This document shows, piece after piece, positions 11,001-45,761 of a DNA stretch of 64,000 nt. The stretch is from Schmidtea polychroa (Eukaryota), in assembly GCA_044892525.1 (NCBI GenBank), contig CM097885.1:35900001-35964000 (forward strand), written 5' to 3'. The stretch's first letter is position 1, and each line of letters begins with the position of its first letter. Under the pieces are notes generated by a model, which was given only the letters and a program-made list of their open reading frames with translations, did no database searches and was not told the origin of the DNA. The translations under genes and the position numbers were made by a program.

Positions 11001-12340
11001 ACTATAGTGAAGGGGTCTCGATGGTCCTGGGATTTTCAATACAAAAAATTTTTTTCTATACAAAAATCCGACTACCACTAAAAAAGCCAAGGATTTATCA
11101 CACTATAGTGAGAGGGTCTCGATGGTCCTGGGATTTTCAATACAAAAAATTTTTTTCTATACAAAAATCCTACTACCACTAAAAAAGCCAAGGATTTTTC
11201 AGACTATAGTGAGGTGGGTCTCCTTGGTCCTGGAATTTTCAATACAAATAAAATTTTTTCAATAGAAAATTCGACTATCAATAAAAAAGCATGGATTTTT
11301 CTAGTTCAATTAAGGTGGGTCTCCTTGGTCCTGAGAAAAAGGTGGTCTACACTAAAAAACGTGGTCCTGAGAATTTCAATACAAAAAGGCAGTATACACT
11401 AAAAAAGAGTGGCAATTTAAGATCTCAGGATATTTTCAATAGAAAAAGGCGGTCTTCAATAAAAAAGCATGGTAATTTAAGGTCTCAGGATATTTTCAAT
11501 ACAAAAAGGCAGTATACACTAAAAAAGAGTGGCAATTTAAGGTCTCAGGATATTTTCAATAGAAAAAGGTGGTCTTCAATAAAAAAGCATGGTAATTTAA
11601 GGTCTCAGGATATTTTCAATAGAAAAAGGTGGTCTACACTAAAAAAGAGTGGCAATTTAAGGTCTCAGGATATTTTCAATACAAAAATCCGATTATCAAT
11701 AAAAAGCATGGATTTTTCTAGGCCAATTAATGCGGGTCTCCTTGGTCCTGAGAAAAAGGTGGTCTACACTAAAAAACGTGGTAAATTTTTTCAATTAAAG
11801 TAAATTATGGTTCTAAAAATTAAATTAAAGTAAATTATGGTCCAAATTTTTAAATTAAAGTAAATTATGGGTCTAAAAATTGAATTAAAGTAAATTATGG
11901 GCTAAGATTTTTGAATTAAAGTAAATTATGGTTCAAATTTTTCAATAACAGTAAATTTAGGTTCTAAAATATTAAATTACAGTAAATTATGGTCCAAATT
12001 TTTCAATTACAGTTAATTATGGTCCTAAAAAATTAAATTAAAGTAAATTATGGTTCTAAAAATTAAATTAAAGTAAATAATGGTCCTAAAAAATTAAATT
12101 AAAGTAAATAATGGTCCTAAAAAATTAAATTACAGTAAATTATGGTCCAAATTTTTAAATTACAGTAAATTATGGTCTAAAAATTAAATTAAAGTAAATT
12201 ATGGTTCAAATTTTTAAATTAAAGTAATGAATGGGCTCAAATAACTAAATTAAGGTTCTAAAAAATTAAATTAAAGTTAATTAAGGTCCAAATTTTAAAA
12301 TTAAGTAATCAATGGTCAAAAATTTTAAATTAAAGTTAAA
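11001..12340. repeat. Subterminal tandem arrays of the left arm (about 101-bp, 60-bp and about 31-bp units), mirrored at about 25200-26790
   Basis: actatagtg recurs at 11001, 11102 and 11203. 60-bp units alternate as A/B variants at about 11370-11690. AATTAAAGTAAATTATGG units at about 11780-12340. Confidence 0.9.
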
Positions 12341-25772: not shown

Positions 25773-27892
25773 TACTGTAATTTAATATTTTAGAACCTAA
25801 ATTTACTGTTATTGAAAAATTTGAACCATAATTTACTTTAATTCAAAAATCTTAGCCCATAATTTACTTTAATTCAATTTTTAGACCCATAATTTACTTT
25901 AATTTAAAAATTTGGACCATAATTTACTTTAATTTAATTTTTTAGAACCAAAATTTACTTTAATTTAATTTTTAGAACCATAATTTACTTTAATTGAAAA
26001 AATTTACCACGTTTTTTAGTGTAGACCACCTTTTTCTCAGGACCAAGGAGACCCGCATTAATTGGCCTAGAAAAATCCATGCTTTTTATTGATAATCGGA
26101 TTTTTGTATTGAAAATATCCTGAGACCTTAAATTGCCACTCTTTTTTAGTGTAGACCACCTTTTTCTATTGAAAATATCCTGAGACCTTAAATTACCATG
26201 CTTTTTTATTGAAGACCACCTTTTTCTATTGAAAATATCCTGAGACCTTAAATTGCCACTCTTTTTTAGTGTATACTGCCTTTTTGTATTGAAAATATCC
26301 TGAGACCTTAAATTACCATGCTTTTTTATTGAAGACCGCCTTTTTCTATTGAAAATATCCTGAGACCTTAAATTGCCACTCTTTTTTAGTGTATACTGCC
26401 TTTTCGTATTGAAATTCTCAGGACCACGTTTTTTAGTGTAGACCACCTTTTTCTCAGGACCAAGGAGACCCACCTTAATTGAACTAGAAAAATCCATGCT
26501 TTTTTATTGATAGTCGAATTTTCTATTGAAAAAATTTTATTTGTATTGAAAATTCCAGGACCAAGGAGACCCACCTCACTATAGTCTGAAAAATCCTTCG
26601 CTTTTTTAGTGGTAGTAGGATTTTTGTATAGAAAAAAATTTTTTGTATAGAAAATCCCAGGACCATCGAGACCCTCTCACTATAGTGTGATAAATCCTTG
26701 GCTTTTTTAGTGGTAGTCGGATTTTTGTATAGAAAAAAATTTTTTGTATTGAAAATCCCAGGACCATCGAGACCCCTTCACTATAGTCTGAAAAATTGCG
26801 TAATCAAAAGTTGCAGCAAAAAAAAGTTGCAGCAACCCCCCCCCCCCCGGGGGGGGGGTCATTGCTGCGGTGGGCCACTATCTACCTACTACAGTGCCCC
26901 CAAAAATTACAGCACGAATTACTAATTCCTAAATATCATTTTTATTAACGGTTGGTGAGTGTTCACTTTTATAGTGAGTTATAGAAAAATGGGGTCTTTT
27001 TATAAACCCAACCACTTTCTTAAAGTTTTCGAGAAAATCATTGTTTTATTGTATTATCTGCTATGAAAATACATTCGAAAACATTTTTGAAACTAATTTA
27101 TCAGCAAAAGGGTAATATTTTTGTTCTTTCTAATATAAATAGAAGTCAATTTATTGAATATTACGGTTATAGATAATATTTATAGTGTATTTATCATAAT
27201 ATGTGAGAAGAATTCATTGAAAATTTTAATTTTGTCCTGCAGTAAATCATGTATGATCTTCTCGGTGGGATATACCATAGTGCCTTATTGTGAATGAAAT
27301 TGTTCCTTCATATATTACTTTTATAATTATTTTTGACATAATCCTATTCTATTATTAAAAGGCTTAAACTAAAATAGTAGATTTGTCATATTTCTGGACC
27401 TCACTTGGAAAAATGTTCAAGAGCCATTGCTAGAATAATTTATACTTCTGTACAAGAATGAAAAAAAACGTTCAGAATAAGGGCGTGTTGTAGTTTTATC
27501 ATCATTTTTAGACTTCAACAGATATTTCAAACAGGCTGGGAAATTCTAAATCATCTAAATATTTTTCTTTTATCTTTCCTTCTTTATAATTAATTTTGTT
27601 TTAAAAATAATATTAAAATGGAACTAAATAATTAGTCACTAAGTTCTTGGGTGTAACCATTCAGAAAAAATCTTTTTTGATATTTTAAAATTACTTTGCA
27701 ATTAATAGTATTTATATGTGTAATGTAGACATACATTGAAACAAAATTGTAAATAATATTATGATAACAAATTTTTTTGAAATTTAGTCTAAAAACGAAT
27801 TAGTTAAAACTACATTTAAATGAAAGAAATATATTAAAGATTATAATTCAATATAAAATTATTCTTCTCTCAATCTTCCGGGGTCTCATTAA

Positions 27893-31100: not shown

Positions 31101-31506
31101 CGATAAAATTTTGTACATTAAAAAAAATCAATAAATTTTATAATATTAGCAACGCACTAATTTACCTGTATGTTGAAAATCTTGTTAAACTTGATAACAT
31201 TTTCATTATAGGATTCGAACTTGGTCAGAAAAATAAATTAATACAAAAACGTACGAAAATTGCGATAAAATTTGTCATTGCGTTTGATAGTAACCATGAA
31301 ATTATAATTTTTGTAAAAAAAATATTAAATCAAGAATTTTCACATTATAATTTGTAAACACAAATAAATCTTCATATTATTTTTTATTTTTTACTAATAA
31401 TTAATTTACTTAATTATTTTTCAAATTAAGTTAAAATTTTTAATTTAAAAAATATTTTTCTATTTTAATTAATCCTTAACACAATATTTGTACATAAACT
31501 TAATCT

Positions 31507-31942
31507 AGTACCCCGTCAAAAGGGCGCTGATAATACGGCCCCGACATAAAGGCCACCGCCAATAGGACCACGTAGATAAACATATTTGTACGTAGAAAAG
31601 AAAGATATTATATGTATGTTGATTTCAAAACGACGTCATCCGTGACTTTTTAGGCGTCAACTGTTAAATCCCAAAAGAAGGCCTACCTATCTCTGGTACA
31701 AACGATTTGAATTGTTTAAAATAGGTTCTATACATTTTTATTACAGATGCATATAGTACCATGGAATGGTTTTGGCGGGGGAGCAGCTGGCATTTCATAA
31801 GGACCAGGAGAGGCAGGAATAGTAAATTTGGTACGAATTCGATCAATCTTGTCAGTTTTGCCAAGGGGTATTTTGTTAGAGGCCCTTTTGACGGGGTCTT
31901 TTTGTCGGGACCGTAATATCGGAGCCCTTTTGACGGGTCACC
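31507..31942. mobile_element. MITE with imperfect TIRs and short subterminal repeats (Mutator/Merlin-like)
   Basis: AGTACCCCGTCAAAAGGG...CCCTTTTGACGGGTCACC. The flanks cttaatct and tttaattt could be a degenerate TSD. Confidence 0.65.
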
Positions 31943-32681
31943 TTTAATTTGTTGTTAAATAAAGAAACCAAATGCTATGTTGACTTGTGGATAAGCATCC
32001 GTACTGTTACTTGAGAGTTAAAATCGAGCTCACTGGCACAGATATATGATACAACTATGAAATTGAGATATTTACTTATTTTATTACCTCATAATTACAA
32101 TTGTTGATAATTGGTTAACACATTGACAACCGATCGGAGAGATCTACCCGTTAGGCACAGATTGGATTATTTTCAAGAGATTTGTAACAAATTCTGATGT
32201 CTATTCCTCACTTCACTCCTTTGCTCAAAGAGTAAAATAGATTTGAAAATGTCACTAGTTGTCGCTTGTAAAAAATACGCCATGGCTAGCTCATAATTAG
32301 GTGCAATTCGTTCGGTCGGTTATATGTTAATATAAGAAATTAAGAAGAATATATTTTTTGAATAAAATCAAACACATTTAAAATTTGCAAAAAAATTTAA
32401 AAAAAAATTAATTTCTATTAATAATATTTTTTAACTTCTATTTATTATTTTTTTACAAATCGAAATGAAAACCTTTTTTACAGAAAGCAATTTATAATTA
32501 AACAATTCGTTACTAAAATCCACAATAAATATTGAAAAGGATTAAATTTTCATTTGCAACATTTTTTATTTGCATTTGCCGTTGAGAAATTAATATAAAC
32601 CTGCAAGAATTGTAAATGTTGGGGTTATAATATTGGAATTATTTTAAAACAAAATTGAATGAAAACCTATTGAAATAGAGA

Positions 32682-34215
32682 TAGAGTTGCCAACTCCCAC
32701 AACCTCGAACCCGGGAGATTATAAAATTGCGAACAGTATAACGCTGAAGAAATAATATAACAGGTGATTTTTCACTATTTTGGTTTACACATGTTAGTGA
32801 TTTTAACTATATGATGACTAATACCATAAAGATTTAAACAAAACAATAGTTTTTACATATTACATTTTACATATTTTACATTTTAAAAGTGAAAAAAACC
32901 TGACAGTGACAGACTAATAACGTGAGTAAGAAGAAAAACATAAAATCGCTCGCCGCGAACAAACAACTTAAACTTCCGGTGACTGTGAGCAAAAATAAAT
33001 CTTGACTATCTGATTCAACTGAATAAACATCGAAACAGTTTTATTACAATCAACATCATCAGTTGTCTTTGGATATAGTTCAGCCTCCAATTGCTTTCCA
33101 CCAACTGCAACAGCTCGATGTCCAGCTACGAAGCCACTGGGATCAGTTTTGAATAATAACGGTTTGTCCATTTCAACATCATACGATAATGCTATCATTG
33201 AACAACCTAATGGTCGCATCTCAGCCGATTGGGTATAGAGCTGATTAATATCCGCCATACAACGACATATTATATCACAAGGCATTTCATATCCAATTTT
33301 AGATTTAAATCGAGCTGCTTCCATTTGTGCACGATATACTTGAGGTCGACAATCAGGGATCATACCAGTCATACCACCTGCAGTACTTTCAGTGATATTA
33401 AACAATCTTGTAGCTGAACTCTTCTCAATCATTTTATCTGGAACTTCTCTTTTTGCAACAATATGCACCACACAATTAATTTTCCTAGCAATGAGTATCT
33501 CCCCAATCCAAATTTTATGTTTATCGTTAAATCTGAAACGCTTCATTTTATCATTTAGAATAATGTTCTGGTAAATCGTTTGAACATAGAAAACACCGAT
33601 TTTGCTTATGTAACTTTCAGTATAAGCATCATCTGCCAATCTGAGTAATAAACAAGATTTTCCAACAACAGAATCTCCAATTAATAGAAGCTTGAATAAA
33701 TAGTCATACTCTGGATTCATTTAATTATTGTCAACGTTCCGGTTTCGATAAACAGATAAACAATTATAATTACAAAGCATTTACAATTCCAGAAATTTCC
33801 GCAAAACATAAAAAATCCATTGATTTAGAAAAACAAAATCTCTAAAAAACTAATATAAAACTTACAAATTAACAGTAAAAGACCTACTTCTCGCGTCTGT
33901 GTGCGCACACCAACAAGAATCGGTCTAACCAGACCGCGCACACAGACACGATAGAAAAATCACCAAACTAACTGCCGGTCAGAGGCAATCCCCCTCTGAC
34001 TGGTCGAAACACTATCATTATTTTAGAGAAATCAAATAAAAGTTAAAACGTCTAAAACTGCACTTTTTTCTTGAAATATTGTAAAATATTCTAAAAACGG
34101 AAAGACGGCAGATTTATATCCCCCTTACATACCCGGGTCATAGTTAACCGGGAGACGGGAGACGAAAGCCGATTCCGGGAGACTCCCGGCAAAAACGGGA
34201 GAGTTGGCCAGCCTA
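32682..34215. mobile_element. Non-autonomous hAT element carrying captured host coding sequence (Pack-TIR-like)
   Basis: TIRs TAGAGTTGCCAACTCCC and GGGAGAGTTGGCCAGCCTA, an 8-bp TSD AATAGAGA/AATATAGA (7/8), and subterminal CCGGGAGA repeats at both ends. Confidence 0.75.
32968..33720 (-). CDS. Intronless chimeric ORF (250 aa): Rab1 N-terminus fused in frame to a proteasome subunit alpha type-6 core
   Basis: aa 1-43 [43 protein letters not shown] match Rab1. aa about 79-216 (VPDK...[20 protein letters not shown]...GYEMPCD...[12 protein letters not shown]...KTDPSG) match PSMA6. Probably a retro-derived pseudogene or chimera. Confidence 0.85.
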
Positions 34216-34280
34216 AATATAGACGTTGAAATGTGATGGAGAAATTCAATGGAAGCAAGCTAAACAAAAGTGTATAATTG

Positions 34281-40905: not shown

Positions 40906-44688
<3,783 letters not shown>

Positions 44689-45761
44689 TAGATATCTTTT
44701 TGTTTTAATAATTTGGAGTTGGCGGTTTTTGAAATTAATTAAAACTTGTTATTTATAAATTCTTTGATTAAATATATATTATTAGTTTCAAGATTTTTTC
44801 TGCGAAATTTAAAGATGGATTTAAAGATGAATTTAACTACAGAAAGGAAAGAAAGATTATGTTTATTCATCGCATTTTTTTATCAAATCATTTTCTCTAA
44901 TGGATGACATTTTTCGTTTACTATTCTGATACTATTTTTTGTATTTTTTGTACACAATAAATTTCACAAAAATCTTGAGAAGATTCATAAAATTTGGCAT
45001 TATATCCAAAAATATTCCTGTTCTAGATGGGCATTATCAGATGTACGGATAAAAACATTTATTTGGATAATTATTAAATAGTTTTGATAATGGAACATTT
45101 TTTAATATTTCTCAAATTATTTTGTTAATTTTATTTACACTAAAATTCCACACATTTTATAAATTCTACTCTACATCTTTATTTTATTTTGAAGAGAGAT
45201 ATTTTGTTATTTGTTGTAATTAAAAAGATTGTTATTCAGGAAACCTCAACAATAATATTTTTTTTTAAATTATTTTAAAAAATTCCCTTTCTTTATCTGT
45301 ATAATTCAATGGGAAAACTGGCAAATTCGTCTGGATTTAGTTTCATATTCAAATCTATTTAATTAAAAAATTAAAATTTTGGTAAGTTTTATTAGAATTT
45401 ACCTGTATCGAATGCGCAGTTTTTGTGATTAATTTAAACAAATTCAATATATTTTTACATTTAAATATCAGAATAAAAAATTGAAAAAAATTATTTAAGT
45501 AATTTTCTTTCTTAAAAATTCTGGATTTTTTTTTCTCTCTTGAATAAAGTTGAGAGTAGGAATAAAATTTTCTAAAAACCGGAAATGTAGTCCATTGAAA
45601 CAAGTCAGTAATTCGATATCACAGCGGAAAACCAATTCTTGAATACGTCATTTTAAAGGTCAGATGGCTTTTGCTCACATAAATTTAGTATTTAATTGTA
45701 TTACTGATAAATAATATTCAATTGTATTTTTATTGAATCAAAATTACAGACTGATAAAATT

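Follow-up and report, generated by a model that had tools for sequence, protein, structure and literature searches.

Introduction

Retrotransposons of the BEL/Pao group, in which the Flow superfamily contains two planarian families, encode Gag (DUF1759), reverse transcriptase (RT), Pao peptidase A17/RNase H and DUF5641 within a single open reading frame (ORF), and possess long terminal repeats (LTRs), a primer site, a polypurine tract and target duplications of 5-6 bp, according to the general account of the group (PMC3118150). The family described below shares all of these features, but differs from the elements presented there in that its LTRs contain exchangeable mosaics of host mRNAs, its ORF starts in the LTR and ubiquitin is placed ahead of Gag; the word "ubiquitin" occurs 0 times in the main text of that account.

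The capture of host mRNAs by retrotransposons has been described as LTR-mediated retroposition (Tan et al. 2016, PMC5131818; maize Bs1 is cited there). Both there and here, the captured pieces are partial, spliced and in sense-strand orientation, derive from several parents and are often in frame, and the median microhomology of 6 bp reported there compares with 6-7 nt at our joints. In the cases set out by Tan et al., the retrocopy takes the place of a portion of the internal ORFs, whereas in the present family the cargo is located in both LTRs, is duplicated with each insertion, is kept in solo LTRs and is carried by autonomous elements without disabling them. Host-derived sequence is also found in the LTRs of the Cassandra, Helenus and Ajax TRIMs, which are described as non-coding miniature elements with one fixed small-RNA promoter (PMC10886601; bioRxiv 10.1101/2023.07.14.548913). 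The present cargo, in contrast, codes for protein, differs between copies and shares the frame of gag. A start codon inside the LTR is known from yeast Ty1. As in our family, pairing of the tRNA-Met primer in Ty1 takes place within translated gag, in that case after a 53-nt 5′ UTR (PMC5454406). The Ty1 LTR contains only a short stretch of the element's own gag and is not known to have host cargo or ubiquitin. An N-terminally truncated ubiquitin captured into the polyprotein of cytopathic pestiviruses directs cleavage by host ubiquitin hydrolases (PMC8310069); this is an RNA virus in which cleavage was experimentally tested, whereas here it is predicted from Gly-Gly ends. Finally, animal Pack-TIRs hold host sequence between the ends of a terminal inverted repeat (TIR) transposon, are mostly single-copy and, in the survey describing them, were filled with genomic DNA (PMC8277862), unlike the independent LTR insertion with its own duplication reported here.

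The combination of an LTR mosaic with a ubiquitin-Gag fusion was not described in the literature covered, which included PMC3118150, PMC6431247 and PMC11410931, subscription journals, Repbase reports and supplements being beyond its scope. A protein search for ubiquitin-Gag BEL proteins elsewhere was dominated by ubiquitin repeats, and none of its 88 matches lists PF03564 or PF05380.

The locus analyzed here lies in a stretch of 64,000 nucleotides from Schmidtea polychroa (assembly GCA_044892525.1, contig CM097885.1, positions 35,900,001 to 35,964,000), hereafter the window. An earlier note had interpreted it as a Pack-hAT, that is, as a hAT transposon that had captured two fused housekeeping mRNAs. 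We find instead that its ORF is very probably the stranded front end of a frame that runs from LTR to gag and that complete family members likely translate within their Gag(-Pol) polyprotein; the ORF is now left in a solo BEL/Pao LTR inside a hAT-type MITE. The coordinates of the features involved are collected in Table 1.

Table 1. Features of the nested locus (positions within the window; strand "." where none applies).
Feature	Positions	Strand	Basis or detail
MITE left target duplication, 8 bp	32674..32681	.	7/8 match to 34216-34223; from sequence
hAT-type MITE left arm, TIR at 32682	32682..33010	+	in 18/19 other copies the left arm joins the right arm directly
250-codon ORF	32968..33720	-	236 codons + 2 nt within the LTR, gag read-through register
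LTR target duplication, copy 1, 5 bp	33006..33010	.	direct repeat with 34012-34016
Solo LTR, 1001 bp, TG..CA, BEL/Pao retrotransposon family	33011..34011	-	copy comparison, ends, duplication
LTR tail, including AATAAA at 33040-33045	33011..33078	-	sequence and junction comparison
PSMA6 CDS nt 152-528 (about aa 51-176)	33079..33455	-	covers parent intron 2; parent G000:C1:117275317-117276192
Gene X piece (third host gene), native frame, 45-nt in-frame deletion	33444..33601	-	parent G000:C2:126.33 Mb (L160)
Rab1 5′ UTR (about 50 nt) and CDS nt 1-124	33597..33770	-	covers parent introns 1 and 2; parent G000:C2:3000324-3001220
Conserved LTR head, common to different cargo types, two stem-loops	33860..34011	-	fold z = -4.7
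LTR target duplication, copy 2, 5 bp	34012..34016	.	direct repeat with 33006-33010
hAT-type MITE right arm, TIR end at 34215	34017..34215	+	MITE copy comparison
MITE right target duplication, 8 bp	34216..34223	.	from sequence

A Solo LTR Nested in a hAT-Type MITE

The outer element is a non-coding MITE of ~520 bp, with short imperfect TIRs and an 8-bp duplication (AATAGAGA/AATATAGA) whose copies agree at seven positions, as the earlier note had seen. The hAT label is our assumption from the TIR and the 8-bp duplication, which we take to be hallmarks of hAT. The MITE is present in many copies: all 40 scored candidates matched when its arms were used as a genome query, and the 8-bp duplication is exact in all 3 copies with both ends called. 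In 18 of the 19 other fetched copies a single CTATC stands between the arms, the remaining one having a truncated left arm, and LTR DNA is found inside none of the 19.

Contrary to what had been supposed, the cargo is not directly bounded by the TIR element. Nested between its arms is a separate element with TG..CA ends and its own 5-bp target duplication, one copy of which is formed by the last 5 nt of the MITE left arm. A genome search with the whole 1581-nt stretch gave 71 matches, with 40 of 3023 candidates scored; apart from the window locus, the matches from these 40 span only about 33005-34023, and most have their ends at 33011 and 34011. MITE arms are present at 0 of 29 other fetched LTR loci, and other LTR copies are flanked by 5- or 6-bp direct repeats of their own. 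Because the LTR has its own ends and duplication, occurs elsewhere without MITE arms and is missing from other MITE copies, it inserted into the MITE. At the window locus, one LTR lies within a target duplication and adjoins neither a primer site nor a polypurine tract, which identifies it as a solo LTR.

The proposal that a DNA transposon captured and carries the fused genes draws on the position of the ORF between TIRs and a near-perfect 8-bp duplication. The independent ends of the cargo, the lack of hAT arms at its other loci and the empty MITE copies all speak against this origin, and the cargo is, besides, spliced; the Pack-TIR survey regarded copies of multi-exon genes that lack introns as retroduplicates and left them out (PMC8277862). 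We therefore reject it, leaving it a practically negligible probability: the cargo was not captured by the TIR element and does not move with it, the vehicle being the BEL/Pao LTR and the hAT MITE only its landing site.

The BEL/Pao Family of the LTR

The first 20 nt of the LTR have 880 exact matches in the genome, against 0 for a control. Among 91 LTRs with a called end, a 5-6-bp duplication was found in 54, a primer site in 13 and a polypurine tract in 9; duplications of this size are typical of BEL/Pao. The conserved LTR head contains a longer stem-loop at about 33893-33948, and none of 200 shuffles folded as stably as the head itself. Paired heads flank gag and protease, with a polypurine tract ahead of the 3′ LTR and LTR pairs 96-99.8% identical, and other paired heads flank a pol that carries stops and is linked to the head type of the window. 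In a sister lineage, each of three copies has a single ORF, 2121-2238 codons long and beginning in the 5′ LTR, with matches to ubiquitin, DUF1759, RVT_1, Peptidase_A17 and DUF5641 (integrase region). At the family level, the domain order is thus that of BEL/Pao (Gag DUF1759, protease, RT, Pao peptidase A17/RNase H, integrase region), in combination with paired direct TG..CA LTRs, a primer-binding site, a polypurine tract and the 5-6-bp duplication. Judged by these domains and ends, the family is BEL/Pao, and its sequence organization indicates that it would work like LTR-mediated retroposition, with the cargo in the LTR fused ahead of ubiquitin-Gag. The primer site is complementary to a tandem tRNA-Met array; tRNA-Met genes lie in a 454-bp tandem array at G000:C1:79.33 Mb (L233), and their 3′ motif is found 1228 times in the genome.

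The copies that are autonomous and have intact ORFs come from the diverged sister lineage, whose gag-pol is 32-53% identical in amino acids to that of the lineage linked to the LTR head of the window; the LTR stem-loop, the primer site and PSMA6-type cargo are common to both. A comparison of L099, L104 and L107 with L101 and L134 displays these two lineages and their common cargo types, and hints that LTRs may have been exchanged between them. No complete two-LTR element with the exact Rab1-X-PSMA6 cargo was found among the family copies examined. This cargo type is nevertheless tied to BEL pol by one Rab1-X-PSMA6 LTR (L010) that is placed directly after a BEL integrase end (93% to L134) and a polypurine tract. 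Next to this LTR, an intron-less 479-codon frame, by eye similar to the 26S proteasome ATPase subunit Rpt2 and possibly a retrogene, was noticed at G000:C2:about 136.149-136.151 Mb on the reverse strand (L034).

Several further observations concern the family as a whole. At G000:C1:74.02 Mb (L044), the 3′ LTR again precedes a primer site, ubiquitins and gag, forming a tandem array with common LTRs. Insertions are often located in (TAA)n/(TA)n microsatellites (16/60 sampled heads under a strict rule; flanks L173-L232 and L002-L030). A family 5′ LTR at G000:C1:15.57-15.59 Mb (L038-L039) is interrupted by an element of roughly 14 kb. This element has long inverted ends, its frames resemble a polymerase and a packaging ATPase, and by eye it looks like a Polinton/Maverick; similar frames occur near C1:27.68 Mb. 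The window itself begins, at 1-358 on the reverse strand, with another LTR from this family group, truncated by the window edge to its 5′ part and 97% identical to that of the autonomous sister lineage.

Spliced Host mRNAs as LTR Cargo

The proposal that spliced housekeeping mRNAs had been captured and fused in frame holds. The parental genes were mapped and are unlinked; Rab1 has 5 introns, PSMA6 has 3, and gene X contains an intron of 53 nt. The cargo is derived from RNA, since the window copy extends over introns 1 and 2 of Rab1 and intron 2 of PSMA6 and lacks them, and sister copies extend over the intron of gene X. In the window copy, the position of the latter intron falls inside the 45-nt deletion, which is absent from other copies; the sister copies hold the spliced form, which is also found in a contig of two sequencing runs presumed to be RNA. 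Simple duplication of adjacent intron-less parents is rejected, the parents being at different sites and containing introns. Both cargo joints show microhomology between the parents, of 6 and 7 nt and in codon phase, with a chance per random position pair of 0.0035 and 0.0012, respectively. Intron loss together with junction microhomology is characteristic of LTR-mediated retrocopies.

The composition of the mosaic departs in part from the two genes and a linker of the earlier reading. Rab1 and PSMA6 were correctly recognized, matching ORF residues 1-49 and 79-216, respectively, but the linker derives from a third host gene, and the PSMA6-derived DNA is shorter than the 33073-33486 then assigned to it. 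The gene X piece is identical to its parent at 148 of 158 aligned nt, and the X and PSMA6 pieces are both 94% identical to their parents. The closest named relatives of the window PSMA6 are flatworm proteins, and searches for its parent with PF10584 and with the whole protein were dominated by LTR copies, yet pointed to the parent. For gene X, neither exon has a Pfam match; in the protein atlas it falls next to unnamed clusters at 0.91-0.92, ubiquitin-like clusters scoring under 0.9, and a ubiquitin-like fold or N-terminal domain is only a lead.

Cargo varies widely between copies. Gene X is carried by 21 LTR copies. In many others, Rab1 extends further, to nt 332-343, before it meets PSMA6 at the same position 152, and in yet others PSMA6 starts at nt 36-57. 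The scored PSMA6 fragments without introns number at least 150 in the genome. Of 26 long LTR frames in a sample drawn by head motif, 18 match host families (Proteasome in 15, but also Ras, DSPc and SelR), 7 match none and 1 has a weak unrelated match, while Cpn60_TCP1 and Adaptin_N cargo is present in other family copies. Contigs of three sequencing runs presumed to be RNA cover the Rab1, X and PSMA6 pieces, with loose ends that run into parent sequences; among the pieces listed, which are contigs and not reads, no chimeric junction is bridged.

The Frame from LTR to Gag

The uninterrupted, intronless 250-codon ORF announced by the earlier note is present. Its ATG stands 710 nt from the LTR end, and the frame runs on past this end into the target duplication and MITE DNA, which supply its last 14 residues and its stop. 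The final CA of the LTR forms the first two bases of a codon that reads CAT in complete elements, where one frame leads from the LTR through the tRNA-Met primer site and an AT-rich leader into one or two ubiquitins, gag and protease, and in some further into RT, RNase H and integrase. The ubiquitins end in Gly-Gly (LRGG, LAGG, LCGG).

The gag register is shared by 131 of 162 cargo pieces and by 25 of 29 distinct 3′ junction classes (91 LTRs). Chance microhomology between coding sequences is in phase in 45-55% of cases, a baseline above one third; taken at 0.5, 25 of 29 classes would have a probability of about 5e-5, a figure to be read with the shared ancestry of the classes in mind. An additional sample of 60 heads was selected by head motif alone from the first 100 listed matches, minus a tandem cluster and the loci already fetched, and 26 of the 60 gave no callable LTR end. 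In the 34 that did, the gag frame is open for 100 or more codons in 25 and the other two frames in 0 and 1, although the shared tail makes the frames non-independent. Beyond the LTR, 11 of 14 primer-site junctions are open into ubiquitin/gag, through leaders of several lengths and 55-82% AT. In six open leader variants the gag frame contains no stop, against 2-12 in the remaining frames (shuffle probabilities 0-0.029, the variants having been picked among the open ones), and a deletion variant (L134) retained the frame through the leader. An intron in the leader downstream of the primer site is not favored, as the frame is open throughout and a GT is absent in some variants.

An alternative reading accepts the same LTR origin but supposes that the LTR frame is not translated into Gag, which would start after the primer site, the in-frame pattern arising from phase-biased microhomology and shared ancestry. 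The high in-phase baseline is in line with this, as are the in-frame ATGs present in most leaders downstream of the primer site and the weak purge of stops and frameshifts in the cargo described below. Left unexplained, however, are the register of the non-coding LTR tail, kept in 25 of the 29 classes, and the open frame across the primer site and across AT-rich leaders of different sizes, that of L134 included; a start after the primer site is, accordingly, unlikely, and translation from the LTR into Gag remains the preferred reading.

Near-Neutral Drift of the Cargo

In 79 PSMA6 pieces, private changes comprise 154 nonsynonymous, 44 synonymous and 9 stops, giving an omega of about 0.95, while for shared changes omega is 0.6-0.8. 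Shared stops are weakly depleted (0 seen versus 2.9 expected, P 0.048, and only for changes in 5 or more copies), and among shared indels 7 shift the frame and 4 keep it, a noisy count. The PSMA6 cargo thus drifts almost neutrally, and the dN/dS comparison suggested earlier gives no sign of purifying selection on the protein such as a functional retrogene would show. The Rab1 ATG was seen in 28 LTRs, of which 19 keep the register; the frame is fully open in 11 and broken in 17.

These results bear on the suggestion that the locus is a nascent chimeric host gene, acting, for instance, as a dominant-negative Rab1 or a proteasome decoy. An intact frame of 250 codons with a native Rab1 5′ UTR, an ATG and a polyA signal would suit such a gene. 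Yet it would encode just 41 aa of Rab1 and a truncated PSMA6 evolving at an omega near 1, its polyA signal lies upstream of the stop codon, its intactness is shared with the other open Rab1-ATG LTRs, and its frame is accounted for by gag read-through. The GDSVVGKS P-loop and the switch-I Thr to Lys change pointed out earlier are indeed in the sequence. They are private to the window copy, the P-loop Gly being kept in 21 of 22 and the switch-I Thr in 23 of 24 LTRs in which the motif was found, and a functional meaning for them is rejected, so conserved residues are mutated in precisely the copy proposed as a gene. We consider a functional host gene highly improbable; the mosaic probably arises as a side effect of the way in which the element produces its proteins, and the locus itself is most likely an inert leftover of the LTR-to-gag frame.

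Proposed Origin and Implications

In the model that we favor, the reverse transcriptase, in the course of copying the LTR portion of the RNA, would switch templates to host mRNAs packaged alongside it, by analogy with the retroposition described in PMC5131818, and the cargo would sit in a long R region. Capture may have been stepwise, with PSMA6 first, Rab1 then replacing its 5′ part and gene X finally placed over the middle of Rab1, because other LTRs join the longer Rab1 to PSMA6 nt 152 and others have PSMA6 starting further upstream. With Gag translation starting at the LTR ATG, as the model supposes, it is mainly captures in frame that would continue to spread, whatever the peptide, and selection would act on the frame and not on the peptide. 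Host deubiquitinases are predicted to cut the cargo from Gag at the Gly-Gly of ubiquitin, as in the pestiviral polyprotein (PMC8310069), and the N-terminal peptide would then be free to vary. Recombination between the two LTRs would have left the solo copy, now without a gag to read into.

A more far-reaching idea, which we put forward tentatively and think rather doubtful, is that the LTR is an evolved capture-and-display module, common to two diverged BEL lineages, in which a translated repeat and a ubiquitin spacer permit cost-free swaps of housekeeping mRNA pieces and the cargo benefits the element. If so, the cargo may make small-RNA silencing costly to the host, or seed hundreds of promoter-ATG-mosaic-polyA cassettes genome-wide.

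The family itself illustrates a route to exon shuffling: its mRNA mosaics are housed within the LTR, and each insertion or solo LTR scatters an ATG-to-polyA chimeric frame. As a natural experiment, it also allows template switching to be followed over numerous independent junctions whose parents are known. The window locus contributes a mosaic of three genes, each traced to its parent, together with a clear empty-site control. In addition, piRNAs directed at the family are predicted to conflict with essential genes of the animal, and the copies pose a practical hazard for annotation, RNAi and read mapping of the Rab1, PSMA6, CCT and DUSP genes in this genome.

Other Features of the Window

Three further features of the window were noted. 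A second small inverted-repeat element, probably another MITE, lies at 31506-31940, with 43-nt arms that are 86% complementary and 340 nt apart. Positions 41400-44700 (+) contain a broken gypsy-like gag-pol remnant in which a zinc knuckle, RT and integrase-like stretches can be made out by eye. Finally, the same repetitive frame of 172 codons is found at 11285-11800 (+) and 25988-26503 (-), in opposite orientation and about 14 kb apart, which suggests a large inverted-repeat element or a duplication.
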